The translations under genes and the position numbers were made by a program. DNA of 64,000 bases from the NCBI GenBank assembly GCA_013239625.1, contig MU054693.1:8378443-8442442 (forward strand), read 5' to 3'. Origin of the DNA: Lama guanicoe. Its lineage: Eukaryota. Under the pieces are notes generated by a model. That model ran no database searches, was not told the DNA's origin, and worked only from the letters and a program-made list of their open reading frames with translations. This document shows, in pieces, positions 12,845-57,580 of the stretch (the stretch's first letter is position 1; every line of letters begins with the position of its first letter).

Positions 12845-12982
<138 letters not shown>

Positions 12983-13472: not shown

Positions 13473-13505
<33 letters not shown>

Positions 13506-17127: not shown

Positions 17128-17526
<399 letters not shown>

Positions 17527-19440: not shown

Positions 19441-19782
19441 CAAGCAGACACTGAGTGTGTGCCTCTGTTTGCACAGACATTACATCACGGGTATACGTGA
19501 GGTTGGGAGGGGAGGGTCTGGCCACGTCCTTCTGCAGATACGAGTGTACATGGATTTGGGAAGAATGTGTACAAAGCATCACACATCTGTGAGGTGGGCC
19601 TGGGTAAGTACATCTCCCACTCAGAGCCATATACAAGTGTGCATGTGCAACTACACGTATGACACACACACATGTGGGCCCTTGAACAACACACTCAGGC
19701 CTCCCCGTATAGGCATTTGCCATGGAGCCATGTCCATGCCTGCTGGGCAAGAGCTTATAGGTTTTTTAATTGAATATCATTG

Positions 19783-19950
19783 AGGTGGGAGGGTATAGCT
19801 CAGTGGTTAGAGTGCATGCTTAGCACACATGAAGTCCTGGGTTCAATCCCCAGTACCTCCATTAATAAATAAATAAGTCTAATTACCTCTCCCCCAATAA
19901 ATAAGTAAATAAAAAGAAACTGCCACCTTAAAAAATAAATTTAAAAAAAA
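19783..19950 (+). mobile_element. tRNA-derived SINE (camelid Vic-1-like) inserted in a minus-strand L1 3' fragment
   Basis: Same head and tail as the other copies; degenerate TSD gaatatcattga / gaaatacagttga; L1-like sequence continues to ~20065. Confidence 0.85.
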
Positions 19951-20422
19951 GAAATACAGTTGATTTACAATATTATATAAGTTTCAGGTGGGCGACATAG
20001 TGATTCACAATTTTTAAAGCTTACACTCCATTTGTAGTTATTATAAAATACTGGTGACATTCCCAGAGCCTGTAGGTTTGGTACATGCCCGCCATGGGTT
20101 TGCAAGTGAGTGACACAGGATGTGCAGGCGAACGTGTCAGGGAGCCTGTACGTCAGCTGAAGTCGAAGTGCACGGTGCACGAGGTCTGTGTGCATGTACG
20201 CGTTGAGTCTGCGGTTACACACCAAGCACGCCTGCGCCTGGTCTTTGCAGGTGTGTCTGACTCATGCCGAGAGCACGTGCGTGCACGGGGGCGGCTGGCC
20301 CTGTGGTTGCCCCGCTGTGTCTTTGCCTTTGTTCACGTGGATGTGTCCACCTCCCCAGAGTCAAGCCTGGCCAGGCCTGGAGCACCTCAGGGGGCCCCGG
20401 GAAAGGGTGGGGCAGGACTCAC

Positions 20423-20584
20423 GTGGCCCAGGTCCAGGATGAAGCAGTCACCGGTGTTGAAGCTGTCCCAGGACACAGGCACTTCCGTGGCGCGGACCAC
20501 ACGCCGCCCTTTGACCTGGAAGAGTCTCTGCACAACCACTTCGTTAGGTACCACGTGCTTGAATCCTGATGCCACGCCTCCTTT
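20423..20584 (-). CDS. GSN: Coding exon 4, G2: [15 protein letters not shown]...[10 protein letters not shown]
   Basis: caacag|AAA acceptor, CAC|gtgagt donor, 162 nt. Confidence 0.98.
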
Positions 20585-22179
20585 CTGTTGGGTCAAAGAG
20601 ACAGTGTCAGCCCGAGGGAGAGGGTCCCAAGAGGCAGACATGGGGGAAAGGGATAGAGATGAGTAACAGAAGGAAATCCTGGCCTGTGGACCAGTGGCCT
20701 GTCAGCAGATTCCCTACGCACTGCACCTTGCTGCCATCCCTTTGAATCTCACACTCCGCTAACAAAGATCCCTGGGCCCACTTTCCTGGATCAAAAACTA
20801 CAAACATTCCTTTCTCAAAACCTGCAGTTCCCCAGGGCTGTTCTAAGGAACTCTAATCCCCTAAGATACCCTGCAAGGAAAGGGTTCCATGATCAAATAA
20901 GCACAAGGAATGCTCCTTATTTGCCCCCTGACTGTTACACAATGCCCATCCGCATGATAAAGGCTCTGGGAAGTCCCACGGTAACTAAGCCTGCTTGCCT
21001 TTTGTTTGACACAGCATTTCCCTACCCTACTGAATCGAGAATTGCTTTTCTCCTCCACATCCTGCCTGCAGCGCGAGCGAACATCCTGCAAAACCCACTT
21101 GGAGAAGTGCTCATCCAAAGCTTTCCTATTCTTCAAGGCTGTCTCTAGGGAGAGTGCTCCAGCCAATCCCATTGCCCTCTCTCCTCCGACAGTTCTGTAG
21201 CAAGTCCCACCTAGCTGTGCCTTCACAGGCGGCTGTGGGTAAGGGACAGAGCACCAACCTCAAGTTCAAGCCTCTACCCTGCCACTCCCATGCTGGGTGA
21301 CTCTGGGTAAGTCTCTTCCCCTCTCTAAGCCTCAGGCCTCTCCCTTCTGAAATGGTGACACGAGCCCCTGCTGTGCCGCCCCCTGCACCCATCACCAAGT
21401 CCCAGGGAACTTCAGGAGGGCTTCTCTGCAGCAGTCAAAACTGCCCTGGGCTCAGCAGAAAGCCAAGAAAAGTCCCAGCCCCAGGTGCTTGCCGGCCCCA
21501 AACCCCAGTCCCCAGGGAGGTCAAGTCAGAGCTGAGAAGGTCCCCACAGAGCTTCGCATTTTACCCATGATGAAAGGGAAGCCTGGAGAAGTGAAGTACT
21601 TACTCCAGGGCACTCCCATGCGTGTGGCACAGCTAAGGATAGAACCTTGCCTCCTGTTGACAATCTGCTGTTGGTTTGTCTCTCTGCTCCATATGTTACG
21701 GGGGAGGAGTCAGAAGAGGGTTTCCACTAAGGCCAGGAATGTGGCCACCCCCTCCAGGACCCTCGCTGCCAACACACTTTGCAGAGTGAAGCCAAGTCTG
21801 ACTCTTGTTCATGCAGGAAAGGGAGCAAGTCTAACTGGGTTCCTATTATGTCTACACACAGTTAGCAGTATAGACAGGGTGGGGAAACGCTAACGCCCAC
21901 CGTGCGGGGCATTTCGCATGCGTCATCTATGAGGGAGATGTCATTATCCCCGTCTTACGGATGAGGAAAGCAGATCCCAGAAGTGAAGAGACTTGCCCAA
22001 GATCTCGAAGCTAGTAAATGGTAGAGCAAGGATTCAAACCCCGGTGTGACTAAATCTATAGCGCCCACATTCTTCCCCCAACATCAGGGTTTCTGAAGGT
22101 CACCCAGGACGGCAGGCAGGAATAAACCATTGTTCAGAGCAAAGTTGTTCAAGTAGAAATGTTTGCCCTGTTGTGAGTA

Positions 22180-22196
22180 GAGCGCCCCCTGGTGTC
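22180..22196 (-). promoter_or_regulatory. CTCF motif ACACCAGGGGGCGCT
   Basis: Strong match to the CTCF core consensus; motif only. Confidence 0.55.
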
Positions 22197-25100
22197 CTTT
22201 TTTGGTACCAGAATGAGGCCTTTCAAGAGCATCCCTTTGGGCTCAGCAGGGTGGCCAAGGCATTCACAGAGCCTTTCTTTCCACCAGACTTCAGGGGCCC
22301 TCCCGCAGGGAAGCAGGTGAGCAAGGGCAGCTGAGGAAGAAGATGTAATGCCTTGTGCTCACCTGGTAATGACTGCAGAGGCTGCCACTTACTAAGCCCG
22401 TGCCAGAGGCTGGGGCACCTGCTTTATGGACATGCGATGTGGTCCCCACAAGCTCCTGAGGTAGTGACTCTTATTATCCCACGTCACAGGGAAGGAGACT
22501 GAGATGCAAAGAGGTTAAGTCCCGTGCCCAGGGCCCCCGCTAATTGGTGGAAGTTTTACCCCCACATTCGCCCTTCCAAACACCAGCTTCACCCAAGTTG
22601 GCCAGCCAGGAACTCCCGAGTGCCTGTGGTTAGCACTGACCCCGGGACTTCATTCAGCTGGAGGTAAAGAGACAGTGGAACTGAAAAGCTTTTCCAAAAG
22701 GTGCTGGACACACCATTTCCATGGATTCCTCAGAGAGGAGGAAACGGGGAAATAAGGGAAGAATAAGACCTTAACTTTTTTTTATACATCTCTAAAATAT
22801 TTCTCTTGTTTAAGCTTGCCTTTTATTTTTTATTAAAAAATAGAAGCTTTCTTTTAAAAAAGAGAAAGGGCTGTTCAATGTCATAAATTCCAGTTCTAGC
22901 AAATTATGTGTATGTATATGAATTTATAAAATAAAAGAACACTTGATTTCTAATGAGTGTGGACAGACATTTCCTGATTAACTAACTCCTCTAATCTTAC
23001 TGATCTAGAAAATTAGACTTGGAAAGATGAGTTAACAGAAAAATAAAAGTAAGCTCTTAGGAGAATTTAGTGGATCTACAAGTACAAGGTGCAGGACATT
23101 TTTGAAAGTTTTATTATTTTTCACTATTTTTACTATAATCTTTAAGACTGTTGCTTTCTATGGTCTAATCATTAGGTGGGCAGAGATTGGCATTAAATTA
23201 TTTGAATGAAATTTAATAGAATATTGTTTTAAAAGCCACTTTCCAAAGTAAAGTGATGAAATATTATATATTATATATATAAAATATATATGGATAATTT
23301 CTATACCTATATATGAATACACATATCTATATGTTCATATATATAGAGAGAAAAATTATATGTCATTTGGTGTATATGTCTCAAAGAGTGAAATCACGGG
23401 GGACTTTTACTTTCTAAAAGCCACATTTCAGTGTTTGACATCTTACAATAAGCTTTTATTACACATGTAGTCAGAAGGGAAAGAGGTATAAGGATCTACA
23501 CTTAATAATATGCTAAAAAGTTTATTAAAAAATTGATTGGGGCTGGTCCCCTCCACACTCTAAACTCAGAAACAGGAGGGAGGGCAGGAAGGGCTTGAGT
23601 GATTCTATGGGTTTCCCAATGTGGTTCTTGGGGCCGGGAGCTTCTAGGACTCAGCCCAGCCCACTCTCTGCTTGAACAAAGGGTTTCAAAAAACCCAGAC
23701 CCAAGGGGTCTGTAGGACTCTAGATCTGAGAGTCAGGAGGAGGAGGCAGGATCAACAGATTCTGAAAAGGGCAGTGACTTTTAAGGATTTGGGGGTCACA
23801 GAACAGGACAGGCCAGGTCAGGTGGCAGCCCTGTCTAGTGGCTCTCGTCCCCTCCCTGCCCTTCTCACACCCGAGGGACAGAACTGGCTCTGAGGAGCAG
23901 GCTTTCACAGAAACAAGTCTTGCGTATCAAGCTCTGCTCCTTGGGGATCTATAATTGATGAAGGCACCAAGCCAAGAACCTTAGGCTGGGCCTGCCAAGT
24001 GCGGGGGCAGTCGGAGGACTTGCAGAAGTTGGAAAACAGGCTTGGCCTTGGACCTCACAACAGAAGCCAGGGCCTTTCAGGACTGAAGTTGCAGCTCTAG
24101 GTCCAGCTTAGGAACTTATCCCCTGGACCATTCCTGGAGTATGGTTTGAGAGCATCCTGGAAAATTCACCGGAAGGTGGGGGAGGCTTGCTACACATGCA
24201 AATTCCCAGGCTCCACCTGAGCGAAGATCAGAGACCGAGGAGTCTTCAAATGTCCACGCTGAACTGGCTCTGTGCTAGGACCTTCATACCTGGGTTTGAA
24301 TCCCAGCTCTATCACTTAGCTGCTGTGTGAGTTGCTTAAATTTCTATGAGTTGCTGCTGTCCACACAGCAACAATAATAAACAGGCACTGCTGTTACAGG
24401 GACTTGATAAATATTTGCGGAATGAATGGCAAATGGGGAACGTGTATGAGCACACACCCAGAGGCAAACAACTGGCCCAAAGCCTCACAGCTGTGAGGGG
24501 TGGCCTGGGGACCTGAATCCCAATTTCTCTGACTCCTGGTCAAGTGCTCTTTCCACTTCCTGCTGCAGGAACTACAAAAAGTCCCGGTCCTTCTCCAAGG
24601 CCAGGGCCTAGGTCCCAAGCTTCTCACCTCTCTGCAGGTACCAAGCCCCAGAAGGGGCTGTAAGAAGAAGGGAGAGCTGGACAGCTCTGCAGGAGTAGCT
24701 GTGAGCATGGGTGAACTGGCCAATAGGGGGCACTGGTAGGCGCCAGGGAATCTGGCCCGGCTTCACCCAGACAAGGGCTAAGGCCCTGTTCCCAGGATCC
24801 ACCCTGCCCTCTGCTACCTGTCTCACTAGAGCTTTTTCATCATCTAATCCCCAGTGTATCAGCTGAGCAGACAGGGCCACTACCGATATTAACACAGAAC
24901 TCGGAGGCCCAGAGATGGACAATGACTTCTCTAAGGTCACACAGCACATCAGCAGCAAAGACAGGGTTTGACCCCTATCCTAGGACCCTACTCATGATGG
25001 GCAGGTTGGTGTAGCGAGAGAAACAGTCAGGAGATCTGGATTCTGGCCCCAGCTCTGGGATGGACTTGCTGTGTGACCCTGGGCCAGCTGCTTAACCTCT

Positions 25101-25810
25101 CTGTGCCTCAGTCTTCCCTCCCTCCCTTAAAATATGAGATTTGGACTCCGACATTAAGGCCATCAAAGTTTGTGATCCCCTGCCTATCCTGACCAAAGAG
25201 AACCCCAGCTTTGCAAAACTACAGCTTTCCCTGAGCCCTTCCAAGGTGCCAAGCCCTGTGCAAGGCATTTCCCACCAACGCCTTCACCAAATCCTCTCCC
25301 AGGCCTGAAGGGCAGATACAACTGGCTCTCATGTAACTGAAGAAGAAAGGGAGGCTCCGGGAGGCCAAGTGGCTTGCCAGAAGTCACACAGCATATAGGG
25401 TACAGCCTCTTGGGGCTCCTGGCTTAGCTTTGCTCAGTTCCCACTGGCTGGGGGCTGGGGCTCCGACTCTTCAGAGTTCAAGTTCAAGGGGGATTCTAAT
25501 GAGGAGAAAGAGAAATGTGATGAAGGGTGCCCTTTCAAAATCTAACGCAGGACTCTGTCATCAGGGCCTGAGAACTGAAGATTACAGATTCAAGCCCCGG
25601 GCAAGCAAGAGGCTAGGTCCCCACTCACACTGCTGGGGCTAGGAAGACAACCCTGTGAAGTGATGGAGAATTTTCTTCTCTCCATTTAATAAGAAACCAG
25701 AGGCTCAGAGAGGGAGTGTTATTTGTCCAAGGTCACATGGCTAGAAAGGGCCCAGAATTCAAACCAAGGGCTGGCCAACTCCAGAGACTGAGCTCTGACC
25801 TGTCTGCCTA

Positions 25811-26056
<246 letters not shown>

Positions 26057-26649: not shown

Positions 26650-27159
<510 letters not shown>

Positions 27160-28284
27160 CTACTCAGCTCCCTGGTGATGGGGGACAGAAGGCTCTACTC
27201 CCCTTCTTCCTTCCTTTCTTAGTGCCAATTAGATGTGACAGCTGAGGCACAGAGAAGTGAAGTGACTCTGCGGGGGACTTCTAGCTAGGAAATGTCATAG
27301 CAGGAACTGGCCCAGGCTTCAAGAAGTTTAGGGCCATGGGGAGACCCCTCAGATGGCAATGGTAAAGCTAGGGGTCCCAAGGGGCTCGGCTTGTTCCCTT
27401 CCAGCATCCTCAATGGCTCTTAGAACTACAGGGGCCCTCAGAGAGCTTATTATCCATCTCCACCTTGTTAATAGGGAAACTGAGGCCCCAAGAGGGGAAG
27501 GGACTGGCCTGAGGTCATGCAGCCTGTCTGCTTTTGCTCTTTGAAAGTGAGAAGATTTCCCATGCCCCATCCATGTCCCCACCACACCCTCAAAGAAGGG
27601 CCTAGGTGCCCGAGCCCAAGTGGCCTCCTGCGCTGTCTGCCTCCTCCCTCCTGCCCCCCAAAACCCCAGCCCCCAAATTCCATTTCTTGGAAAAGGCGAG
27701 AGGACGCAGCTGGGGTCTGCAGGAGCCTGTTGGAGATGAGGTGGTCCAAGTTGGGGGAAAGACTGTCAGACATGCGCTGGGGCTAGAGATGGAGCAGAGC
27801 GGGATGGTTAGCCTGGAGCCAGAGATTGGAAATCAGCAGGCGCAGGTCACCTCGGGCCGGATCTGGTGGAAGAAGTCAGGAAAACCAGATGGGAGAACTC
27901 AGGCAGAGGGGTGGAGAAACACAAAAGGGAAACAGAAGTGAGGAGAAACCAGACGGGGCAGAGGAGATAGCAGAGAGGGGAGAATAAATAACAGTAATGA
28001 TGATAAGCAGGCGGAGGTTTGAGATTATACAAAAAAGAGAGGAAATATTGAAGAGGGAGAGAAAAATCAGATGAGAAAGAGGAACCTGAAATGGAAGAAG
28101 AAATCAGAAGGGGGAAGGAGAGAAATCAGGCAGAGGGAAGGAGAAATTAGACAAGGAAGAGGAGAAATCAGGGGGCAGAGATGGGAAAGAAATCAGAAGG
28201 CAGCGGCGAGGTAAAAAAGGAATCCGGCCAAGGTGAGGTTAGATTCTAGGGAGGGAAACAGCCAGGGCCCTGAGGCTCCCACCC

Positions 28285-28416
28285 NNNNNNNNNNNNNNNN
28301 NNNNNNNNNNNNNNNNNNNNNNNNNNNNNNNNNNNNNNNNNNNNNNNNNNNNNNNNNNNNNNNNNNNNNNNNNNNNNNNNNNNNNNNNNNNNNNNNNNNN
28401 NNNNNNNNNNNNNNNN
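28285..28416. other. Assembly gap (132 N) in GC-rich intron just downstream of the plasma exon
   Basis: N run. Confidence 1.
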
Positions 28417-28419
28417 GAG

Positions 28420-28830
28420 CCCCCAGGCCCCCCGGGCACTCACCCGCTCCTCAGGCACCCGCCCCTGGGGCGCCCGTGCCTGGGGTGCCCGTGCCTGGGG
28501 CGCTCCCCGCGACGCGGTGGCCCCGCGAGCCGGCGGCGACAGCGCGCACAGCGCCAGGACCAGCGCGCCGAGCAGTGCGGAGCGTTGCGGAGCCATGGCA
28601 GCGACGGCGGCAGAAGACCCGGGCGGCAGCCGGGACCTCCCGGGTCACCGACCTTAAGTAGCCGCCCGCCTATCCCGCCCGAGCCGGGGACCGCCCTGCA
28701 GGGAGGGAGCGGGGCTGGGTTGGGCCCCCGCGGGCCCGGGAGGGGCGGGGATCTGGCCTGGATTTTTGAAACATCGGGGTTCCCACCGGGACCGACCCTA
28801 CGGGGCGCGGTCGCCCCTTCGCCCTAGCTC
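28420..28830 (-). promoter_or_regulatory. GSN: CpG island / promoter of the plasma isoform
   Basis: Very CpG-rich; GC boxes at ~28674-28680 and ~28743-28749; TATA-like TACTTAAG (minus strand, 28653-28660) ~60 nt upstream of the ATG. Confidence 0.82.
28444..28596 (-). CDS. GSN: Plasma-isoform first coding exon: signal peptide plus N-terminal extension ([25 protein letters not shown]|[26 protein letters not shown])
   Basis: Kozak gccATGG, hydrophobic h-region, 153 nt = 51 codons, donor CGG|gtgagt, phase 0. Confidence 0.96.
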
Positions 28831-31324
28831 CGGGGTGGAGACCAAGCACAGGGCGTGGCATACCGCAGGCACTAACTCCTTGCACACTAAATGGGCGCAT
28901 GTAAGAAGGGCAAGGAGCCTACCCAGCTTAGTCTCCTGTGTAACCTAGGCAAGACCCCTGCCCTCTCAGCATGTAACGTCTCCAGAAAAAAAAGAACATA
29001 AACTAACATTTACTGAGGATTTTCCCTGTGTCACATGAAAGCTGACACATGTTAACATTCTTTACAGACTGGGTAATATTGACAGCCCCATTTTACAGAG
29101 GAGGAAACTGAGTGCAGAATGCTCACGCAACTTGCACACAACTAGGAAATAAAATAGCCAAGATTTGACCTCCGGTGGTCTGGGTGGACTGCTCACCAAG
29201 CTGGTGGCTGCCATCAGCTAAGGACACAGTTCAGGGGGTGACAACCTTCCTTGGACCCGTGAGCAAGCAAGACAGAGGAGTGGGCATACCTCTCAACTCC
29301 TGGGATTGAATACCGCCCTTCTTTCCTTCTTTTTAAAAAATTTTCATTTTTTATAAGTTTATTTTTCTCAAAACTTAAAGTCACGTTATTTGTACAAAGT
29401 TTTGCTTCTCAATCCCACTTACTTCTACCCTGGGGCAACCAATCACTTTTCAAAAAAATTTTTATTTAATTGATGTACAGTCAGTTACACCCAAAATTGA
29501 CACATTGCAACCAAACACTTCTGTCTTCCTTCTTTGGCTGATGATTTCAGGGTTTACCTTCACACCTTAAATAACAAGCCTTTGTTGTTTAGGGGTTTTG
29601 GGGAGGGTGGAGGGATTTGTTTTGGTTTTGCTCTTGTTTTTTCAGTTTTAGTTTCCATCTACTGGCTCCCTGTGGGGAAGACAAGGATTCAAGTCTCTTC
29701 CCCCATTCCCAGGCTCCCTCCCCTTCCCTACCCTCTCCCACTGGAGTCATTGGGTTAGAAGTGCTATGCAAACTCATCCAGGCCTGCTCCCCACCTCCGC
29801 CAACCCGCCTCTTCCCCCTCCCATGGAGAGAGGGGAAAGAGAGAACTGGGGAGTTGGAGACCTGGGTTTGATTCCGGCCTCAGTCTCCCCATCTACTAAA
29901 TGGGCATAGTGGCTGTTGAGAATTAAACTTATCTGTGTGTGTGAAAATGGCCTGGCCTGCAATTAGGTAAATGGGAATTCCCATCCCCCTTCCCCACAAG
30001 CTCTAGTCACCGTCCCAACCCCCGCTGGATCCTGGTTTCTGTCTAATCAGGCTGAAGTTTGCCCTCCAGCACACACAACCTCCTCCCATTTAACGGGGAC
30101 TGCGGGTCAGGGAAAGGGCCAGGAGCACACACAGAGAAGACAAATCAGATTGCAGAGATTCTAAGAAGGCTTAGTGGACAAAGGGATTTGTGACCTGGGC
30201 CTGAAAGGACGGGGAGGAGGGAGACTGGAAAGAAAAGGCATTCTAGGGGAGGGAACAGCACGGGCAAAGGGCAAGCAAACACAGGCCACATGCAGTGAAT
30301 AATGAGGGGTCCTATCTGAAACATGGGAGCAAGAGGAAATGAGGCTCGAGAGGGCGGCAAGGGTCATAGGGACCTGTGTGCCACACTGGAGAATCTGAAT
30401 TTTACCACAGTGTCTGTGGGGAGCCACAGAGAGATGCCCGAGTGCTCCGGGCTGTGAGTCTAGGCCTGGGCCTGCCGAGCCTACAGCGGACCAGCTCTGG
30501 ACTCAGTTCAGACAGCCCTTCCCTCTCCCTAGGCACCTGGAAGATGATAAAAAGCCCACAGTTCTCATAAGCGATTAATGGAAGCATAAACCGGTTTCCC
30601 CTCTCTGGAGAGCAATTTGACTATACAAATTCGAAACACACAATGCGACAACAGTTCCATCTCCTTCAGTATTACTTACAGAATGTAAGTACAAAAATGT
30701 ACGTGCAAGGGTGTTCACTGGAGCATTGTTTGAAGAAAACTGGAAAGGACTCAAATGTCCCAGTTAAAAAAATCATGGAGCCGCCATACAATGGACCACT
30801 CTGTAGCTGTGAAGGAAGAATGAGCTAGCTCTGACGGTGGGCAAACAGCAGGCGCTCAATGAGCACGGAGAGAGCTCCAAGTGCAAAAGGCAAGTTGTAC
30901 AACCACTCTGGTAGGGCTCCTCTCCTCTTTTATGAACGCATCCGTTTTTGCATACATCCTTATCGAGGCGAGTGAACACCCAACCATCAAGCCAGTTTGT
31001 GTGAAAGGGATCAGGAGGAAGAATTTCACTCCCAAGTGTGGCCCTGGCTGCCAGAGGCTGGAAGAAGCACCCACATCACTGTAGTTGGCACAAGGGAACA
31101 TCTTAGGGCGATGAAAACCTTCTAGCACTGGATTATGTGACCGAAAAATGTACTAAAAATCATAGTGCTGTCCACTTACAAGGGGTGAACTGCAATGGTA
31201 TCTAAATTACACCTCCTTATACTTGTGTGAAAAAAGGTTTTAAATGTGCTATAGGGTTTAAACTATTTACAAGTATTTATCCAACACAGCTTTTTTTAAA
31301 AAAATAAAATAAAAGACTGATCTA

Positions 31325-31437
31325 ATGGGGAGGATATAGCTCAAGTGATAGAGCGCATGCTCAGCACACAAGCACTCCAAATAGAAAAAAATGAATAAAC
31401 CTAATTACCTCCCCCTCACAAACAAACAAAAAAAACC
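31325..31437 (+). mobile_element. tRNA-derived SINE (Vic-1-like) with the B-box region deleted
   Basis: Head ggggaggatatagctcaagtgatagagcgcatgc, same acctaattacctcccc tail, perfect 12-bp TSD aagactgatcta. Confidence 0.85.
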
Positions 31438-34400
31438 AAGACTGATCTAGAAATCATACCTTAAAAATACACACAAAGTGATACCTGCACATTAGACAAT
31501 TTGGAAAATCCAAATAAGCAGAAAGAAGAAATTTTCGTCATCCCAGCCCCCCTGAGAGAAACTGAATGGGCAACTGTCCCAGCTGAGCAGTCCCTTCTGT
31601 CCAGGTGGTGATTAACAGAGGCTGCTGTGGTTTGGCCTTGGTCCCAGGGGTCACTGGCCCCCAGGTTAATGATCACCACAAAGGCCCTGGAGCTTTGCCT
31701 GTCACATAGCTCTGGAGCCTGGGACCTCAGCACCAGGGTGAGCAGGCTCCCGCCCTCGGGGTGCCCATGGCCTAGAAACCCTTGCTGCAGGGCAGTGATG
31801 TGTGGAGACTGGGATGGGGACAACATGGTCCCTGCCTGGAAGAGGATGTATGTGTTCAGGAGACCAGCGGGATTTAAATGCAAAAGAAAAACCTTTAGAT
31901 ATAAAGAAAGAGGCCTCAGCGCTAGGCCTGCCTCTGCCGCCGACTTCCTGGGTGACTTTGGGCAAATCACTATCCTGTCTGGGCCTCAGAGTCTCCTTAT
32001 GCAAAACACGGGGTAGGCCCCAACGCTCTGACCCTAAGCCTCATTCTTAGACCCAGCATTCCCAGATACTGGCTATGCAACCACATCTGGAACCTACACG
32101 TCTCTGAGCCTCAGGGTTCCCATCTGTAAAATGGGGGCACTGGTCCATCTTGCCTTTACAGGTCTCTCTGAATCAGACAGTCCAGGGCCTCTGACCTGCA
32201 TGAGGAGACACAGCCATCACCAATGGCAGCATGCCACCTCACCTCTGGGTCTCTGGGTCTGGACATCTCTGGGAAAGAGAGGAAGGAAAGGAAAAGGGTG
32301 TTGGATATTGAGTCTCCTCACAGCAACCAGGGGAAAGTAAGCTCCCACTTTGTAGATCAGGAAACTGAGACACGGGGAGTTTCAGTTACTGGCTCAGGGT
32401 CACTCAGCTGGAAAGAGGCACTGCTGAGGTTCAGACACAAGTCTGGCTGGTCCCAGTCCCCAGGCTCTGTCTGGGGAGGTCAAGCAGGGCTTCCCAGCAC
32501 CATCCCACCTGGGCAGAGAGGAAGCAGCAGTGCCCTTTACACATAAAGGGTTGCAGGTGCTGAACCAGTCAAGGCCAAGCCAACTCCGGCAGCCCAGAGT
32601 GGTTGAGGCAGCGGTCCCCACCAGACCTCCCAGACCGGGGCAGGAGGTTGCCCCAGGAAAGCCCTCTTGCCCTGCACACACCTGTGTGAGCACCCAGGAC
32701 AGAGGCATGCCCTAGGAAGGTCTCCAGGCTGTGGCCACTGGGTGGAGGATGGACTGTGGCACCTATACTCTGTCCCATTCGTGGGCCCAGTTTCCTGTAC
32801 TTGGGAGGCAGCCCTGCTCGGCCACCACTTGCTAGGTGAGCATACCCTAGTCCCTGCCCTTTTCTGCACCTCAGAGATCCCCCAACCTCTGATCTTGGGT
32901 GCCCCTGGCTCCCGCTCAGTGCTACATGCGGTAGGCAGCTTTTCAGCATCCGCCCCAGGAAGGATCTGTGCTGCCCTCATCCCTCCCGTGTAGTTGGAGC
33001 CAGGACCCCCTGCTCTACCAGCTCCAGCCCTGCTCCCTCTTAGGCTAGCCTCCAGGTCTCTCTGGACCTCCCAAGGCAACTACCAGAGATGGGAGGAGGC
33101 CGCCTCAGCCTCCGCCCCCGGCCTCAATGTACAAAAGGCCTTGGCCAGTCCTGGAGGACACCACCCTGTTCTTTTCTCTTCACCCCGATGTTGATTTCCT
33201 GGGCAGCCAGCCACTCGTGGGAAGCCCTCTCTCCGAGCTTGTTTGCTTCTTGGCTCTGGGTCCTCCTGGGGGCACCCAACCCTCCCGCCCCAGGGTTTTG
33301 CTAAATGGGACAATGGTCAGTAAACAGAGAAACCAGTTACGAAACCTGGTGAGCCAGACAGGGCCTCGGTGAGGTCTGGGGAGCCCTAGGGACTTGACGG
33401 AACACGTGTTTTAGAATCTGGGAGACTTCACTCTTGTGATCAGGACCTCAGTTTCCTGATCTAGAAAATGGGGAGGATGATACCTGACTCACAGAGCAGT
33501 GAGGAGGCCCAAGGCTCGACACACAGTAGGAGCACCCCCAAAGTTAGCACCCTCCTTCCTGAACCGGTTTCTTTGCACAGAAGCCTACGTTCAGCATGTG
33601 CACACCATGTGAACTCCGTGCACTGGTGCAGGAGAAAGGTTGCAGATTTCACAGTGAGATTCTTGAGTTCGGATCTGGGCTGTGTGACCCAAAGCAAGTT
33701 ACTTTCCCTCTCGGAGCCTTGGGTCACTCATCTGCAAAAAGGAAGAGTAATGCCCAGTTGAGTGTGATTGGGAGCTCTGGAGCGAGACTGCTGGAGTTCA
33801 CCGCAGAGTAGGACTTACTCACATCAATGTTCACTACTAGCCCATCCTCCCTTTGTAGATGACATCAAGAACAAGAGTGTAACTTCTCAGAGTCACATAG
33901 CAAAGGACAGGCAGAGCAGACCTAGAACCCCGGTCTCCGTTCCCAGGCCAGAGCTGGGGCCTGAGCCCAGGAGATGACAAGGCTCCCTGTAAGGGCCAGC
34001 TGGACCTCTGCCCTGGCCCAGTCTATCTTGGGTGTGGACATCTGTCAGGGAGATGGCCATTGGGGCTTGGCTGAAGCCACCTCCACAAGGCCGACTATCC
34101 CAGGGACCAAAGCCACTGGCTCTTTCCCAGCTTCCGGAGGCAACCCCACCTAGCGCTGAGAGCCAGGGCAGGACATTCAGAGAGGGCTTGGAAGCAGCCC
34201 TTCCTGACCCCGTGCCCTGGAAGCAGCCAGATCTGGCCGTGAGCGTGAGCCCATTGCCCTTCCTGCCACTTTGCAATCTGTGTCCCCTTCCGTGGGGAAG
34301 CACTGGCCCTGGCAGACGTGGCCAGCCAGCAGCTAGGGCAGCAAACAGCTGCAAACCACTATACCCTAGCGCCTCTGGTACCCCTCGGCCCACTGACAGG

Positions 34401-36394
34401 GGCACAAACTCAAATCACCAGCAGGACAAGGAGGCCCAGCTGCAGGTGCTGTGGCCATGGGACCATCTTCTGATGGGGACACAGTCTCCATCTGCAAACA
34501 CCCTGCGGGCAGCAGGGCCTGTGGTGCCCCAGTCAGAGCCAGAAGGAGCAAAAGCCACAGAGGAGGGCTTTCCAACAAGGAGAAAAACAACGTGCATATT
34601 TGTGGAAAGAGCTACCGCCAGGAAAATCTGGGTTTAAATCACTGACCTGCCACTTCCCAGCTCTGTGGCTTCTGCTCTCTGAGCCTCAATTTCCTTATCT
34701 GTAAAATAAGGATTAGAATACCTTCTTCTTAGGGTGGCTGTAAAATACATTTGGGGCTTAGCACAGTGCTTGGCACAGAGTGTGCACATATAAAGGAAGC
34801 CGTGGTGGTTGTCTCCTGGGGGTTTGGGTAAGCGTCTGTCTCCAACACTCAAATTCCCTACGTATAAAATCAGGGTAAAAATATCTTTCTCAAAGGTGAG
34901 TGGAGAAGATTGGATGAGACCATAAATATGGAAGATCCTAGGACCGTGCCTGGCATAAGACAGATGTTCAAATATGCCAGTTTCCTTCCACCTCGCCCAG
35001 AAAGATAATGACTGGCTCAGTGGTGACCCAGCCAAGAGGACTCAGGTGAAGAACAAACCAGCCCCTCTCTAACGACCCGTTGGGCCCTTGGACTTGAAGA
35101 TTCTGAAAGAAACAGCAGAAGGCTAATAATATTTGAGCATCTGGACAAGATGCCTCCTATCTGTCTGGAGACCATGTGCATCCTTCAGCAGGATCTAGCA
35201 GGGATGCAATTGGTCCTCAGGACCATGGAAGCTCCTCAGGCCAATAATCACCATGATGGGAACAGTGATGACAGGATATCTGAAGATGGTGACACTTCCT
35301 TCCTGCTGCAGGCTCTGAATGAAGCCCTTCTCTGTCCTCAAGCCTTGCACAGCCAGCTACAGGCAAGACTGCCCTGGAAGCGGGAGCCCATCATCTGGGT
35401 GTCAGTTTTCACCCTGCAGGCAGAACTTCCAAGAAACACAAAGGGAGCAGGTGTGGGACGAAGGAGAGACTACAGAATCCTGGAGCAGGGGCCGAGCCTT
35501 GGTGAGCTCAGGACACCAAGAATGACCAACAGTGTGAAGAGGACACAACCTTCCACCCCAAGGAGCACAAGATACATTCAGGGTGAGTTTGGACAGAAAC
35601 CAAATCCCTACCACAGGGGGACCTTGGGCAAATAGCCCGTCTTCAGTGTTTTACTTTCCTCCTCTATAAACTGGGGTGATAGTCCTACCCTGGGTTGTCT
35701 GCGAGGATTGAAGGAGCCATGGCACTGTGCCTGGTACACAGCAGGCGCTCAGTAACCAGAACACCCAAAGACAACCCCCCAGCATATGTCCAGGACCTGC
35801 AAACATACAGCCCACTGGCCCCCAGACCCACCTTTGACTTCAATCTCTGTGTCCTTGCATCCAAAGCAGGGGAGGGCTGGAGAGTCCCAGCCAAGGCCCA
35901 GAGGCCTGGAGGGATGATTGGTGCCAAGGATGCGGAGGCATGTCAGGAGAGGGCCTCAAGTCGCACTTCAAGAGCCCATCTTGACTCTCACCCAATCCAC
36001 AAGCCTCTTTTTGACGCCCTTCCCTCTCTTCTGGCCTACTCTCGCTCAAAGGAACAAGGGCTCTGGGATCACCACCCAATCCCAGTCCTGTCTCTTCCAA
36101 CCTAGGTGACCAGGGACAAGTGACTCAGCCTCTCTGAGCCTGTGTCTTTGGGTATAAAACAGCCAGACTCTCTCACAGGCAGGCCTGCCAGAACTTGATA
36201 CTAGTAAAAATCAGTTATGGAAAAACTCTAAATGCTATATAGCATGATTGGAAAGTCTTTGCAATTTATCTCAAATTTTTAACTACAATCGAACTACCAG
36301 AGATTCAAAGATATTTTTGATCCTTGCTAATCTCTTTAATTTTAATAAGGCTTTTTAAGAAGTACTTTCCCTCTTTGTTTATGTTTATAAAGAA

Positions 36395-36915
36395 GTTTTG
36401 GTATATTTATATAATGGAATACTAATGGAATACTATTTGGCCATAAAAATGACAACATAATGTCATTTGCAGCAACATGGATGTCCCTGGAGAATGTCAT
36501 TCTAAGTGAAGTAAGCCAAAAAGAGAAATAAAAATACCATATGATATTGCTCATATGTGGAATCAAAAAAAAAAAAAGAAGAGGAAGACAAAGGAACTTA
36601 AATATAGAACAGAAACATACTCATAGATATAGAATACAAACTTGTGGTTGCTGGGGGGAGGAGAGTGGGAAGGGACAGACTGGAAGTTCGAAATTTGTAG
36701 GTACTGACAGGTATATAGAGAATAGATAAACAAGTTTATACTATATAGCACAGGGAACTATATACAAGATCTTGTGGTAGCTCACGGTGAAGAAGAATGT
36801 GACAGTGAATATATGTACATTCATGTATGACTGAAAAAATGGTGCTTTACACTGGAAATTGACACAACATTGTAAACTGACTATAACTCAATAAAATGAA
36901 ATTTTAAAAAAATTT
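36395..36915 (+). mobile_element. Younger L1 3'UTR fragment, 5'-truncated, flanked by a ~29-bp duplication
   Basis: catttgcagcaacatggatgtccctggag...agtgaagtaagcca...tatagcacagggaactata...actcaataaaa; flanking repeats at 36360-36388 and 36924-36953. Confidence 0.88.
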
Positions 36916-38990
36916 GATGAAAAAAGTACTTTTCCCTCTTTGTTTATGTTTATTTATTAATTTATTTTATTTTTTATTGAAGTATAGTTGATTTATAATG
37001 TTGCATTAATTTCCGGCAGAAGAGTGATTCAGTTATACATACATATTTTTTCATTATAGGTTATTACAAGATATTGAACATAGTTCCCTAGTTATTTTAA
37101 GATCTGTAGCCACAAAAAATCTATAGCAACAGATAAGACATAGATATAGATGTAAAAGAAAGCTACAGCAAATAATGGCTGTAATTGGATCTCAGAGAAT
37201 ACGTGACTGTGGGTCAGATATTTTAGACCAACAAATCAAGATGTAAATTAACTACCTAATGTCAGAGTATTCAAGTTGTGGGGTCCGGTTTAGAGGGATG
37301 GATAATTTTTTTTAATATTCAAATTCTCAAGCTTCAGATGACGACAGAGATGTCACGCTCCCAATTTGTATTTACTCTCTAAATCTAAAATGTAAAAATC
37401 AATTGAATTGATTAAAAGACTGTATTGTACTTTCCCCTCTTGAACAGAGGCATGGTACTGGAATGCTTCTGTTCCGTTCCCAGCTCAGAGAATAACGATA
37501 ACCAGCTGGAAGAATTAAACGAGAACCAGCCCACAAAACACGGTGCCAGGCACGTGACAGCGCTCCATGATGGGGGCTGTCTTCTTCCCCCCAGGTGTGC
37601 TCCCAGCCTCATTGCCACCCAGACACCTCCCCCTTCACCACAGGCTCCAGGTGCCTGTCCCTTTGGGGGCTTCCAGAACCTTCTGGGACACTCTTAGAGG
37701 CAGGGCCTGGCCAGAGTCATCCCACCAGGACACACATAAGGGCTGAGACCAGCGCAGAGATGCTCAATCCCACTACTCCCCACTTGACACTCGCTTCCCC
37801 CTCCCGCATCCCAGCCACTGTCCTGGTTCAAGGTCCCCATCTTTTCTTTGGAACCACTGCACCAGCTTCCTCACTGCCTTCAACTTGCCCATTATCCACA
37901 GACATTGCATCATTCCCTACTCAAGACCCTTCCACAGCCCCCACTGCAGGCTAAAAGAAGTCAGGACTCCTAAGATTGGCTTTTAAGGCCCTCTAGGATC
38001 TGGTACCCATGCGCTCTTGCAGCCTCACACCCACTGACCACACCCTCTCCAACACCCTCTTCACCACTTCTTGCCTCTATATGTCCTCAATTTCCTGCTT
38101 CCAGGAGACTGAGGGTCCAGCCTCAGCTCTGCCTCTGACTATGTGACCTCGGGCAAGTTCTTTGCCTCTCTGAGCTTCAGTCTCCTCATCAGGCTACTGG
38201 TGATCTTGTGCAGATGAGGCAAGATAAGAGAGTGAGCATCAGGTGCCAGGAGGGCTCAGGAAATGCAAGCCTGTGAGCCACAGCCTCCTCCCCACACCTC
38301 GCTTCTACCATTCTGATAGCAGCTGGTAGGGGTGGGCTCCTCTGCCCAGCAGCTGCGGTGGGGACTCTCTCCTAAGCCCCGGAATGCAGACGCGCTCATG
38401 GCCAGCAGCAGTCAGGGAGGGAAGCTGGAGGGAGGGCGGCTTAGAGGAAAATTACCCGGCTCTGGTCCAGCCAACACTATGCTCACAGCTGCCTCTCAGA
38501 GAGGGGACCTGGGGGCCTGGCAGGCTTTTCCTGAACCATGGACTTGGCCCCCAGCCTTGATCCGTCTGAGCTGGCGGGATAATGGGGGGTACTCTGGGCC
38601 CCACTCCTCTGGGACACTCCCACTCTTTGGCAACCAAAGAGACGGGGAGGAGGAGGAAAAACAACAGACAGGCCTTTGTGAGAGGAGAAAATTGGCTCCT
38701 GCTGCTCCACGCTGGGGCCCCAGGCACTGACATGAAAAAGGGACCCTCTGTGCCCCACTGCCGTCTATCAAACCCTGCACCCTGGGTACCTTGTCCCTGT
38801 GTCATACGCTCTGAACCACGCCCAGCCTCACATACATCAAGCTGTCTATGTCCCATAACAGGCCCCAAGCTCCTCTTACCTTGTCCCGTGTGTGTAGCCT
38901 GGTGCACGTTCCACGTGCTGTCCCACGTCACCCATACCTCAGACCATGCTCCATGCACCATGTCACATCTGCTGTATGATGTACTCTGTG

Positions 38991-39417
38991 CAGACAGCCC
39001 CCAACTTGCGATCGTGCAGCTTACAATTTTTTGACTTTACAATGGTGCAAAAGCAATACATATTCAGCAGAAACCGTACTTTGAATTTTGGTCTTTCCTG
39101 GGCTAGCAATATGCTGTCTATACTATTTATTTTCTTTCACAATGCTGGGCTGCAGCAGCTTCCGTCAGCCAAGCCATCACCAGGGGAAACAAACAATACA
39201 CTTAACAACCATTCTGTACCCAGACAACCATTCTGTTCCTCACTATCAGTTCAGTCTTCAATAAATAACATGAGATAGTCAACCCTTTATTATAAAATAA
39301 GCTTCCTGTTAGATTTTGCCCAACTGTAGGCTAACGTTAAGTGTTCTGGGCACGTTTAAGGTAGGCCAAGCAAAGGTGTGATGTTCGGGAGGTTAGGCGT
39401 ACTAAATGCATTTTGAC
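38991..39417. mobile_element. Tigger-family DNA transposon fossil (MER47-like)
   Basis: Terminal cagacagcccccaacttgcgat...; internal attttgcccaactgtaggctaa...gtgttctgggcacgtttaaggtaggc matches my recollection of MER47. Confidence 0.72.
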
Positions 39418-41684
39418 AGGCTCTGGGACAGACTCCTACCAATCATTACCTACATAACCTTGGAAAAGTCACCCCTCTCCTTCTCAAAGCCTCAGTTCCT
39501 TCAGCTATAAAATAGAAATGATATTAACACTCATCTAGTAAGGGTTCTTGTGGGGGTTGAAGGAGATACTGCAGAGAAGGGGCCTACCCCAGCGCCTGAC
39601 ACAGAGGGAGTCTATGAAATGTTTGCGGTCCCAGCTGTGCCAGGGTGTCTGTACTACAGCCTATGCACTGCTTGCCAGCCTCCTGAGACCCCAGCTCCCA
39701 CTGTGCATTAGACACTGTATCACCTTAGTGAAATTCAAACAAAAAGCTACAGGGAAGCTATATCTCCTCTGCTACAGGGGAGAAATTCAAGGCTCATAGA
39801 GGGTAAGAATCTGCAGGAGGTCACACAGCCAGAAAGGGTGAAGCTGGGTATGCACACAGGTCTGGGCATCCAGAGAGACAGAAGGAAAATTAGTGGTGGG
39901 CTAGTGGGTAGGGGCGCAGACTGCTGGCCAGCAGGCACAGGCACCTTTTTGGAGATGGTTAGGGGTGATAAAAATGTTCTCAGACCAGATTGTGGTTATG
40001 CTGGCATTACTCTGTAAATTTACTAAAAATCACTGAGTTAATTAAAACCAGTGAATTACATGTATGTAAATTACACGTAAATTTAGTCCAACAATTTATG
40101 TAAATTACACTTCAATAAAGCTGTTGTTTTTTTTTTTTAAGCCCATGCGTTTCGCTGGCACCACTCTGCCAAAGCAGTCAGCAAGAAAAGTGACTCTCCT
40201 TGAGTTAGTGGAGACAGTCGAGTGGAGGCTGAGCAACCACTTGGAGGCCCAGGGGAAAGGAGCCTTGAGCCACCTGGTTCCCGAACACCTCTGCAGATCA
40301 GGTGCGCAGCAAAATCACCTGGGGAGCTCCAGAAAGCTTGGATTCCCAGGCCCCACACCCAGCCTGAGCCTACAGCTTGGGGTGGGGCCCGCAAACCTGG
40401 GATTCTGAGGCTCAGCCTGGACTGGGAACCATTCATCAAAGCCCAACATCTCCTTTCACACTTGGGGAAACTGAGGCCAGCAGAACAGGGGACTTGCCAT
40501 CTCTAAGCGATTGAGGAGTGGGAGAGCCAGGGCTGAAATCAGGGTCCATTCTCTGTTCCTCCTCTCCTTTCCCTCTTCCTCCCTCCCTCCTCCCTGGCCC
40601 TCAGCCTCCTGGTGACTCAGGCTCTGAGTCATCCAGTGGCACCACAGAGGAAACGTCTTAGGAAAAACAATCCCCAAACAAAGCTCCCCCTGATCTAGGG
40701 AACAGAATAGGCTGGGGGGCTAAGAGAGGGCAGGGAGGAGAACACAGGGTGGAGTAGACCTGGTCTTGCATCTTGGCTACTGAGCCCCAGAGAAGGCGCT
40801 TCCCTGCTCTGAGCCTCAGTTTCCCCTGAGTAAATAATCCCTACTACCACACACAGAAGCTCAATATGGACCAGACAATGTAAGTACTTTTCAGTTTTGT
40901 CTTGTTGACAACGCCTCCCCAAGACCCATGGCTAGCATCATGCCCATTTTACAGATGGGGAAACTGAGGCTCAGAAAGGTTTAGCCCAAGGTTACACAGT
41001 TAGGAAGCGCAGAACAGAGTCGGAATCCGGGGTGATCTGACTCCGAAGTCTTACTCTCACTCCTACACATCTTTTAAAGATACCTACTGCACAGTGTGGC
41101 ATGCAGATAATGTCTCATCAAACGCGTAAGGTGAATGGCCCAGTAGGGCCTCAACCACACGTTTTTCTCCTTCCATCCTCTGTTGTCAGGCCCTGCCTCG
41201 GGACTTCCTGGCCCAGCGGGGTGCACACAAGAATTTGGGTAATCACTCAAGTGGCTCTTGGCAGCAGGAGCTCACAGAAGAAAGCACCCTGGACCTGATG
41301 AGCCACAAAGGAAGAGCATTTGAGCCAGGCTTGGAAGGATGAATGGAGGTTTGTCTTTGGGGAACAGGGAACCAGCACATCAGGTGGAGGGAACAGCTAA
41401 GCAAAGGCTCAGAGGTGTGGCCCACATAGGAAAATGCAAATGCTGGAGAGGCATGGCTAGGATTAAGACTTGGACACGTGGGTGGAGAAGGGGCCTGACT
41501 GCTAGGGGTCCTGGCCTGATCTGAGGCAGTAGAGAATTTGTAAGCCGGGAGAGAATAGGATCGGAGCTGGTTTCATCTCTGCAGGGGGCCTGGCTGGGAG
41601 TCAGGACTGGGACCCTCCACAGCCTCCCAGGAGCCCCTCTTCTAAGCAGGCTTTGGGGACAACCCGAGATCCCTTGCTACTCAC

Positions 41685-41726
41685 CCATGGGTCAGAGTCA
41701 CCCCCAAGGGCCTCTTCCTCCGCCAT
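41685..41726 (-). CDS. GSN: Candidate alternative first coding exon, MAEEEALGGDSDPW
   Basis: gctATGG Kozak, exactly 14 codons, consensus donor TGG|gtgagt, phase 0 matching the common exon at 26934. Confidence 0.7.
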
Positions 41727-41778
41727 AGCTGGGCTGGGCAGAGGACAAGCGGGCCTCTGACCACATCAACCTAATCAC

Positions 41779-41794
41779 ATTGGCCTATAAATAG
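41779..41794. promoter_or_regulatory. MEF2 site overlapping a TATA-like box (CTATAAATAG, 41785-41794) with adjacent CCAAT
   Basis: Perfect CTA(A/T)4TAG, ~60 nt upstream of the MAEEE ATG; attgg (CCAAT on the minus strand) at 41779-41783. Confidence 0.6.
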
Positions 41795-44700
41795 GACCCT
41801 GTGGCTTAGTCTGAAATAGCTGTGCCCGGCCCAACTCCATGGGCACCACATGGGCACGCACAGTTCCGGAAATGGTCCTTCTCCTCGACACACTGAAAAC
41901 CAAAACTTCCTCAGGAAACCATTGTTCGTGCTCTAATTCACTTTCTTAAACATGAGGCAGTGGGCTGGGGGGAAGAGCCCGCTCAACTACTGCAGATTAT
42001 TTGAAATGGGTCTTGCGACTACTTTTCTGCTCTCTGTTCTCTGGGGACCCTGAGCGAGTCACTCCCTCTCTCTGAGCCTCAGTTTCCCCAGATGCAAACT
42101 GGAAGGTTGCATATGATATCCCTGGGGCCCTTCTAGCCAGGATGCTCCCCAGAATTGTCTCAGGGTCAACCTCTACCCGCAAATGGTTACCCTGCCCCCA
42201 GTCGACTTGAGAATTTTTAAATTTTTCAATATTTAAAAAATTAGAATTGCAGTAAATACTTGAGCCAGGTCCGAGCCTTCAGTGGAAGGGCTGGGTGACT
42301 CTGGATGAGTCACCGTTCCTCTCTGGGCCCGAGATTCTTCAGCCATAAGATGAAGAGGCTGGCAGGATGATGCCCAGGGGCTCTGACTTTTTTTAATTAA
42401 AATTTTTTTGTTTAGAATTAAGAACCACGATAGGCCGGCCTTGTGCTGGGTGCTGGGACTAAAAGACAACTAAGACCTGGTCCAGCCCTCTGAGCCAGAG
42501 CCTAGGGGGGAAACATAAAGGCATTTCCAAACCACTTAGCATCCCATCAGAGGCCTTTTTCAGGGCTGCTGGGGACACCCTGTTTCCACTTCAGGTTACA
42601 GATTTATGACCACAGAGAAGGACGCCCCAAGGGTCAGATTACGACATGGACTGGGCCGTTCGTTACCAACCAACAGGTAAATAAGGATAACGGAGCCATC
42701 ACTAGGTCCTAGGCATGTGCTTAGGACTTGACTTCCCCATCGTTAATCCTCAACAACCCTATTATCACCCCCTTTCACAGATGAGGAAACTGAGGCTGAG
42801 AAGGGTTCACAGATGTGTCGAGGGGGCACAGAGCAAGTCAGAGCCAGAGAGATGTGCAGACCTGTTTGCCTCTGGAGCCCAAATCCCAGTGAAATAGCTC
42901 AGGAGGGCTGACTAGTGGGGGGAAATGATCCAACAAGGCACAGGACAGGAAGAAGTAGACAGCATTTTACTGTATGTGTAGGCAGATGGGAGAGACCAGG
43001 CTTCACACGCATTCTCTCCAACCAGTTCACAGCGTTGCCCCTCTGATCCGCCCTCCCCTCTGCCTCCCACCAACTGATTGTTCTCAAATTCCACTGCTCA
43101 AGCTACTCCTCAGCTTAAGACATGCCACGGCTCCTTGGCACCCAGAGGACTGGGACCCCGCATTCAAGGTGTCTCCCAACCCCATTCTCCTGCCACTCCC
43201 CACCTCAAACCCACCCTCCTTCCTGTGTTAGCCACGCTGCTCCCTAGTCCCCAAGAACAGCGGTTATGCCAGGGGGCCAAGCCTTTGCATTCGGGACTCC
43301 CGTGCCTGGATGCTCATCGCATCCCCTCAGCCTAGTGCTTGACTCAGGAGGAAGCCCTCTGTGGCTCCCCGGGCCCCTGGCACTTATTGCCTGGCCTTCT
43401 GGGCACCAGCCACCACAAGCCTACATCTCCCAGGGTGGAAAAGGGTCTGATTCACCTCCCTTCTCCAGTGCAGAAGCTCAACAATGAAAAAATGCAAGGA
43501 GCCCAGAGAATGCTGGAAAGCGCACATTTCCCAGGACAGCTCCACCCCAAGCCTGGTACTGAGGCACAGCGTGAGCACGCCACAGTGTGGAAGAGCCAAA
43601 AATTACACCTTATCAGGGTGGGACTTGCGGCTGTCTCTTTCAAGAGTTCTACTAATGAAATCTAGGCACATCTCCCCCCGTGCTTTAAAGCTTCCAGTGG
43701 TTCCCCAGGGGTCTAGGACAAAATCCAAACTCTAACCAAGGCCCCAAGGGCCCGCATGACTGAGGTGCTTCCTGGTCTTCAGGCTCTTGCCCATCACGCC
43801 CCCTTCTTTCAGTTCCTCAAGGGCTCCACACGCAACATACTGCCTCTGAGATTCGCTCATGCTGTTCCCTCTGCCTGGGGCTCCGTTCCCTGCTCACTCA
43901 GCCACCTGCCTCCATCTTCAGGTCTGAGCATTTTTAGGAAGGCCTCCCTCATCTGTCCAGAAAAGATTCTATCATATCCACCCAACCACATACACCTTCA
44001 TAACACTGGTTGTTTCCCTCACAGCTGAAGAAAGAAAGAATTTATTATGTGTATAATGACTTATGTAAGACTCAAGACTGTAAGACCCATGAGAGTTGGG
44101 AAAATCTCTGATGATTCTCCAATACCCAGTTCCAGGGCCTAAATATCTGTCAAGTGAATGCACACATGAGTGAATGAATGAATGAATGAACCAACTTACA
44201 CATGTAACTCAAGAGAAGAAGGTGGTCAGAATCCTGCTGAATGGCTGAGGCAAAAAAACAGGGCCCTGATTAAGAAGGTCAGAAAAATAGGAGATAAAGT
44301 AGATGGTGCAGCCTGCCAGAAGCAAAAAGAGGAGAGAGCTTCTAGAAAGAAATGATATCCAAGGCTCCAGAGAGGCAGTGCCTGGAGAGCTGAGGAAACT
44401 GCTGGATTTGACAAGGAGGAGGTCACTGCACTCCCCTGGCTGAACCCAAGCCCAGCGGAGATGGGGGTGAGGGGAGGCACAGCACAGATGGACGAGGGGA
44501 GGGGAAACGTGCAAAGCCCTCAGTTGACAGGAGCTCACTTCTGCAGAAACCAGGAAAGCAGAGGACGGTCCCTGTGTCACTCTCGCCAAAAGTGTTAACG
44601 GAGCATAACTCTTTTCGGGGACGGATCACTCGGAGACAATTCAGCTTTGGGAGTTGTCAGGGCTCATCTCAAAAGCAGGAGCATCAGAACCAAGATGGTC

Positions 44701-56989: not shown

Positions 56990-57580
56990 ACCGCCTTGAC
57001 GGCGGGCGGGCGACCACCTACAACCCTGGGCAGCTACAGCGAGTGCGGGGGTGACCCCGGGGCCCACTTACCCACCGGGACTGCGTCAAAGTTAGCTCAG
57101 GTGCTTGCAACACAACCCGGCCTGTGGGTGGAGGCCCGGCCCCCCTCCTCTCCTGCCCTAGTCCCCAGTCCAACTCTCCGTGGTCCCCTGGACACCAGCA
57201 AGGTGAGGGAGGAAGCCCTTCTCTAGAGATGTCCGGGCAGCCGAGCCGAGCTCCAGGCGCGGGCAAGCTCGGAAGAGGAGGGAAAAGGACTCGATGTCCG
57301 GGATCCCCAGACGCCCCGGCGTCGTGGTCGCTCCCCGCCCCTACCTGCTGCTGTGGCGCTGGCGACGGCGGCTGCTGGGTCCAGCTGTGCTCAGCTGGTT
57401 CCGGGCGGCGGGGCAGGGGCCCTGTGGTCGCTGGGCGGGGGTGGGCAGGGCGCTGGCGGGAACCGCCCTCGGGGCGGGGCTCCGGGAGAGGGGGGCGAGG
57501 GGGCGGGGCGCCGGCCCCTCCCATGTTCGGCGGGGAGGATGGCGACTCCCGCTCCAGGCTAGCATTCATGGAGCGCACTG
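56990..57580 (-). promoter_or_regulatory. GSN: CpG island / TATA-less distal GSN promoter with GC boxes and G-runs
   Basis: Dense CpG; several GGGGCGGGG motifs at 57430-57510. Confidence 0.82.
57345..57420 (-). other. GSN: Distal non-coding first exon of cytoplasmic GSN (5' end approximate)
   Basis: Lies in a CpG island just downstream of GC boxes and ends cagcagcag|gtaggg. Confidence 0.78.

Follow-up and report, generated by a model that had tools for sequence, protein, structure and literature searches.

Does the camelid gelsolin gene (GSN) carry a further coding first exon and, if so, does that exon have its own promoter, and what protein would it make? The question arises from a 64,000-nt stretch of Lama guanicoe DNA (contig MU054693.1; hereafter the window), in which a first-pass annotation had proposed a minus-strand first exon encoding a distinct cytosolic gelsolin. 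Here, we propose that GSN has, throughout mammals, an alternative 5' coding exon that gives a 748-aa cytosolic form and is likely served by a CpG-poor MEF2/TATA promoter of its own, some 35 nt before the ATG. This explanation we consider the best available and hold with reasonable confidence. Of the existence of the isoform itself we are nearly certain.

The gelsolin locus and the acidic exon

The minus-strand gene of the window is GSN, as identified by the identity of its signal-peptide exon and by its chain of coding exons (Table 1), which makes this a camelid GSN locus; it is single-copy in the 2.05 Gb genome. The gene has at least four 5' ends: an upstream CpG start, the acidic 14-codon exon, the plasma exon, and a gelsolin-3 exon; a separate gelsolin-3-type exon is encoded in the same gene in the genome of this species. 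The probable upstream non-coding exon has the donor CAG/GTAGGG and a GC content of 0.71, and a rat CAGE cluster lies at matching spacing. CpG observed/expected is 0.65 at this start and 0.83 at the plasma start, versus 0.30 around the promoter of the acidic exon.

Some features of the locus are recorded here for their own sake. A tandem, near-identical pair of 493 nt (58021-58513 and 57455-57947; local score 487) lies at the upstream CpG promoter, with a short run of N between the copies; an assembly overlap and a real duplication both fit. The common G1 exon closes at 26730 with the donor TGG/GTGTCC, weak when compared with the other donors inspected. In the plasma signal exon an ARAPQ unit is directly repeated (28470-28503), and its 51 codons are 3 more than in horse or bat.

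Table 1. Features of the GSN locus in window coordinates.
Feature	Position	Strand	Remarks
Alternative 5' exon, coding part, 14 codons, MAEEEALGGDSDPW	41685..41726	-	sequence and translation
5' splice donor GTGAGT after TGG, phase 0	41679..41684	-	same hexamer as the plasma exon donor
Intron, 14,750 nt, skipping the plasma signal-peptide exon	26935..41684	-	junction known from orthologues
Pyrimidine tract with two CAG ends (acceptor-like site or plain 5' leader)	41728..41756	-	exon would begin at 41733 or 41728
Initiator-like TCAG	41757..41760	-	predicted start, about 35 nt after the TATA-like element; inferred
CCAAT pentamer, probably incidental	41779..41783	-	3' of TATA, an unusual place
MEF2 consensus CTATTTATAG overlapping TATA-like TATTTATA	41785..41794	-	59 nt before the ATG
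ETS-type cores: TTCCGGAA at 41871, PU.1-like GAGGAAGT at 41912	41864..41917	.	motif matches only
Common GSN exon	26730..26934	-	encodes PSS, then Met of the 731-aa form and the start of domain G1
Plasma gelsolin signal-peptide exon (rival 5' end)	28444..28596	-	51/51 residues identical to alpaca XP_006205617.2
Remaining common GSN coding exons	2427..26046	-	tblastn exon chain
Probable upstream non-coding first exon, CpG-rich promoter	57345..57400	-	boundaries inferred

The start codon at 41726 lies in the context ccagct-ATG-G, with G at -3 and +4, and the zebra protein (P0151) matches the window by tblastn at 41726-41676 (E 3.75e-9). The peptide begins MAEEE and its final residue is Trp, as in the 748-aa RefSeq X2 models. 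Before 26934 the acceptor has phase 0, like the donor of the acidic exon. Joining the two gives 14 + 734 = 748 aa; the 734 residues of the common part are counted on the alpaca protein P0153, which agrees with the window at 51/51 residues of its first exon. The good-Kozak ATG, 14 codons and phase-0 TGG/gtgagt donor described in the first-pass annotation are thus all present (41726-41679), and its 748-aa gelsolin with an acidic, non-signal N-terminus agrees in phase, length and hydropathy. Within 28600-57900, a good-Kozak ATG followed by 5-30 open codons and G/GTRAGT occurs once, at the acidic exon. Because 27 of 200 Markov-resampled sequences also show this pattern, the exon anatomy by itself carries no significance; when a MEF2 consensus at 30-120 nt upstream is also required, a pattern chosen post hoc, the count falls to 0/200. 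It is homology, rather than anatomy, that on sequence comparison establishes the acidic exon as real.

Conservation and existing annotation

A search with the common exon, extended by cluster look-ups, yielded 274 proteins, of which 267 have the G1 start motif, 12 belong to the acidic N-terminal class and 26 to a separate gelsolin-3 class. The 14 residues are identical in zebra (Equus quagga, XP_046502946.1), bat (Rousettus aegyptiacus, XP_016011409.2), cat (A0ABI7X3I9) and the Logan protein P0124, and 13/14 are shared by bear (Ursus arctos, XP_044245500.2), where the final Trp is lost to Ser, and by Przewalski's horse (Equus przewalskii, XP_070453129.1). From these RefSeq models, all of them 748-aa X2 isoforms with the same junction, the camelid form shows no difference of substance; they are automated and come without a described promoter or function. 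X2 models of three marsupial species (opossum, brushtail possum and sugar glider; XP_007474640.2, XP_036604539.1 and XP_068929890.1) have an acidic version of 13 residues, and those of platypus (XP_028918794.1) and echidna (XP_038600662.1) one of 11; all start M(A)EE, end in Trp and join at the same junction, with in-frame length changes, and it is peptide and junction that mark them as probable orthologues. By comparison, the plasma exon varies, with indels, between alpaca, horse and bat. Among the bird, reptile, amphibian and fish proteins listed the acidic start is absent, and judged from these sequences it appears to be as old as mammals.

Most of these orthologues are automated models (XP_ or TrEMBL), a source in which only in-frame forms yield proteins. 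Of the cluster members listed (15 of the main cluster's 1240 and all 4 of the camel cluster), none was a primate, rodent or camelid carrier, and residues 1-40 of P0151 found no human or rodent carrier among the shorter and near-length proteins serving as cluster representatives. A run search (24 runs, with 14 RNA or RNA-like runs at 0.27 of 11 words) carries no evidential weight.

Could the acidic exon then be a chance look-alike or an annotation artefact? Exon-like anatomy does arise in the resampled sequences, and the cat model erroneously reads through the promoter. On the other side, models of 10 other mammal species attach this peptide to the same common exon, and so does a spliced assembly contig. 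This bat-like contig (1,547 nt) encodes P0124, which equals the spliced bat protein at 413 of the first 414 residues before running into intron; because it follows the spliced protein over 414 residues, P0124 comes from spliced RNA that contains the junction, and for mammals generally it already refutes the artefact reading, to which we give almost no credence. The acidic exon is likely, from its sequence, to be spliced to the common exon in this species too. Conservation across mammals, which the first-pass annotation had left to be checked, holds for start and junction alike in the bat, zebra, cat, marsupial and monotreme models.

Two candidate coding extensions were rejected. In the cat model (P0003, A0ABI7X3I9) the acidic exon is 41 codons longer and reaches back across the promoter; as the window has two stops in that frame, the 41-residue extension looks like an annotation artefact. 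An MPLC match at 42524 was considered as a further coding exon, and no donor follows it.

The 748-aa isoform is not new: public gene models of 10 or more mammals already contain it, and those of human probably do too. The suspicion that a similar isoform had been annotated before was well founded, the RefSeq and TrEMBL models carrying the same start. We take human isoform d to be GI 384475528, with NM_001258029 as its encoding record. A supplement row lists human "gelsolin isoform d" at 748 aa, 82.47 kDa and pI 5.63 (PMC4893325), a length equal to 14 + 734; the match is one of length, and on that basis human RefSeq isoform d is likely the counterpart of the camelid form. The available text of one study counts NM_001258029 among the cytoplasmic forms of GSN (PMC8320529), and A0A0A0MS51 is named, without a length, as human gelsolin in the available part of another (PMC5153474). 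For mouse B cells, the portion available reports only a switch of GSN start between 780 and 731 aa (PMC12247766). Term look-ups in the accessible parts of three further sources (PMC13600778, PMC9562650 and bioRxiv 2025.09.24.676871) gave no mention of the isoform. A literature search for the peptide returned 0 papers, and no study of the isoform or its promoter was found in the open-access literature searched.

How does the form relate to the classical gelsolins? The available text of a review recognises three, plasma, cytosolic and gelsolin-3, and the 748-aa form, uncharacterised in the papers searched, is not among them (PMC9600545). It resembles them in being made from one gene by an alternative 5' end placed on the same common exon and 731-aa core. 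In contrast to plasma gelsolin it has no hydrophobic signal peptide and so falls outside that class; compared with cytoplasmic gelsolin it has 17 extra residues; and its acidic, cysteine-free start differs from that of gelsolin-3, which has 11 residues with a Cys-Cys pair. The isoform is thus distinct from all three, as the first-pass annotation had held.

As a separate observation, reptile and amphibian gelsolin models (P0044, P0085, P0092, P0105, P0117, P0174, P0208 and P0216) have short starts of Met-Gly-Cys or Met-Gly-Cys-Cys type. Starts of the Met-Gly-Cys type resemble myristoylation and palmitoylation signals. Mammalian gelsolin-3 has a Cys-Cys pair too, and a membrane-anchored gelsolin form may be ancient.

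Promoter, leader and tissue

Upstream of the exon, CTATTTATAG is the sole perfect CTA(A/T)4TAG in the 64-kb window, while the looser YTAWWWWTAR has 10 matches including this site. The first-pass annotation had described a perfect MEF2 site some 60 nt upstream that doubles as a TATA box, next to a CCAAT and to ETS-type cores at about 41865-41920. The MEF2 site (41794-41785) is as described, and GGAA/TTCC cores were found at 41917, 41910, 41871 and 41867. The TATA overlap is real, but it is the plus strand that carries the canonical TATAWAWR element, TATAAATA, and the gene's own strand reads TATTTATA, with 1 mismatch. The CCAAT is likewise present, but its proposed role finds no support: besides its position, the cat model has R-P-A against R-P-M in the window, a difference that in this register rules out CCAAT, so that the pentamer is seemingly absent in cat. 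A start at the TCAG would leave a leader without an upstream ATG. As for the number of promoters, the claim of a third and separate one is likely right as to a promoter of its own, but not as to the count, given at least a fourth 5' end, and an acceptor-like site offers a rival account.

The plus-strand TATAAATA (41786-41793) faces away from GSN and could drive an antisense transcript. Presumably, a human GSN antisense RNA lies in about the same region.

The read-through peptide of the cat model, although rejected as coding, is informative about the DNA. Set against the upstream frame of the window, which is non-coding, it matches at 30 of its 41 residues and keeps G-P-I-Y-R-P across the MEF2 site; as that frame is interrupted by two stops, the agreement shows that the DNA itself is conserved, over about 120 nt. 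In metagenome contigs scanned for host DNA the orthologous promoter was not found (599 pattern matches, none confirmed; 0 in a second scan), and since these scans gave nothing, the case for promoter conservation is the cat peptide. From these motifs and this match, the acidic exon probably has its own MEF2/TATA promoter. Xenopus MyoD reportedly has a compound MEF2-TATA promoter. Such promoters are functional in Drosophila antimicrobial peptide genes, according to the available text (PMC3807682), and the GSN site resembles these in placing a MEF2 consensus at the TATA position; it differs in that its canonical TATA is antisense and that it is known from sequence alone.

Two alternatives bear on this promoter, one concerning where it is active and the other whether it is the source of the exon at all. 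The former, as first proposed, is a MEF2-driven, muscle-biased promoter making a muscle-specific cytosolic gelsolin. In its favour, a perfect MEF2 site and a TATA-like element overlap where CpG is scarce, but MyoD-type E-boxes, CArG boxes and MCAT elements have 0 matches each in the 1.07 kb upstream (42800-41727), and the companion motifs are ETS/PU.1-like. MEF2 and ETS sites together fit endothelial or myeloid cells as well as muscle. In cattle, GSN is higher in skeletal muscle than in liver or cortex in the data available, a gene-level signal that may be the plasma form (PMC12771847). The available rows of a rat left-ventricle CAGE table hold six Gsn-linked clusters spaced by 26.2, 1.6, 0.8, 6.4 and 2.4 kb (PMC8742872); the window's own spacing, counted from the upstream start past the plasma start to the exons that follow, is close to this at 28.8, 1.7, 0.9, 5.5 and 2.0 kb, and clusters were mapped to the window by spacing only. 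On this mapping the upstream promoter gives 8.9 tpm and the plasma promoter 455 tpm, and no cluster lies between them in the consecutive rows 7251-7252 (PMC8742872). A cardiac promoter is weakened by this result, to the extent that the clusters are rightly placed and that rat keeps the exon; skeletal or smooth muscle may still use it. With muscle motifs lacking nearby and the rat heart interval empty, the muscle bias finds no support, and we regard it as unlikely.

The empty rat interval also favours the other alternative, namely an internal or hybrid exon, into which transcripts begun at the upstream CpG promoter would splice at CAG 41734 or 41729 to make the same 748-aa protein, with the MEF2/ETS cluster as an intronic enhancer or a second, minor start. 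The first-pass annotation had missed an acceptor-like CAG 7 nt before the ATG. The two CAG ends have 14 and 13 pyrimidines out of 17, values attained by 3.2% and 7.5% of the 1056 YAG sites in introns; both fall inside the 9-16 pyrimidines spanned by GSN's 16 coding acceptors. Cat is identical over the 6 codon-equivalents preceding the ATG. Against splicing at this site, the TATA-like element, initiator-like motif and ATG lie at core-promoter spacing, the cat conservation extends far past the splice site, and the candidate for a branch point is weak (TTGAT). The acidic exon may be first, internal or both; a purely internal or hybrid origin strikes us as rather improbable.

The N-terminal tail and its possible role

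In light of the isoform being real, what might its extension do? Its 17 residues (14 + PSS) include 5 acids and no basic residue at a GRAVY of -0.91 (the plasma form scores +0.87 over its first 27 residues), and because of this composition it is not a signal peptide. In an AlphaFold2 model of the zebra protein (P0151), residues 1-20 have pLDDT < 50 and the usual six-domain secondary structure follows; the run used a shallow alignment of 26 sequences (pTM 0.42), so that only local features count.

We infer the following course under the preferred reading of a separate MEF2/TATA promoter. MEF2 and ETS factors would, with TBP, start transcription near 41760, giving a short leader; the 14,750-nt intron containing the plasma exon would be removed at the junction shown in orthologues; and the strong-Kozak ATG would be used ahead of the Met of the 731-aa form. 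N-terminal processing cleaves Met before Ala and acetylates the new end. The initiator Met would thus be removed, the N-terminus acetylated, and the protein would stay cytosolic. The extension would form a flexible tail outside domain G1, calcium-dependent severing and capping are predicted to be normal, and the main gain is predicted to be a separately regulated source of cytosolic gelsolin. The simplest reading is accordingly an ordinary cytosolic gelsolin under separate control.

Whether the tail matters in itself is harder to judge. One option is that the peptide is a neutral passenger, selection acting on promoter, Kozak context and donor, so that a minor isoform functionally equals the 731-aa form. 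Non-coding upstream DNA is conserved as well, the last Trp codon supplies the -1 G of the donor, the bear has Ser there, the tail is predicted to be flexible, and a function for it is unreported in the literature searched. Yet the 14/14 identity spans four orders (cat, bat, zebra and camelid) next to a plasma exon that varies, and the start Met, the acidic run and the final Trp persist in marsupials and monotremes. We see the passenger reading as a serious contender, somewhat short of an even chance. An acidic-Trp motif binds Arp2/3 in cortactin and WASP, and a DPW motif binds the AP-2 ear. The fullest proposal, that the isoform has been kept since the monotreme split with its acidic-Trp tail as a docking motif and with a MEF2/ETS-driven promoter serving particular cell types, would target a severing protein to branched actin or endocytic sites; the docking hint is weakened by the double duty of the Trp codon and by the bear's Ser, and as a whole we find this proposal highly doubtful.

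For gelsolin biology, the immediate meaning is that measurements of "cytoplasmic GSN" may mix in the 748-aa form. Should the tail dock a partner, or the promoter be specific to a cell type, our picture of gelsolin would be refined rather than changed.
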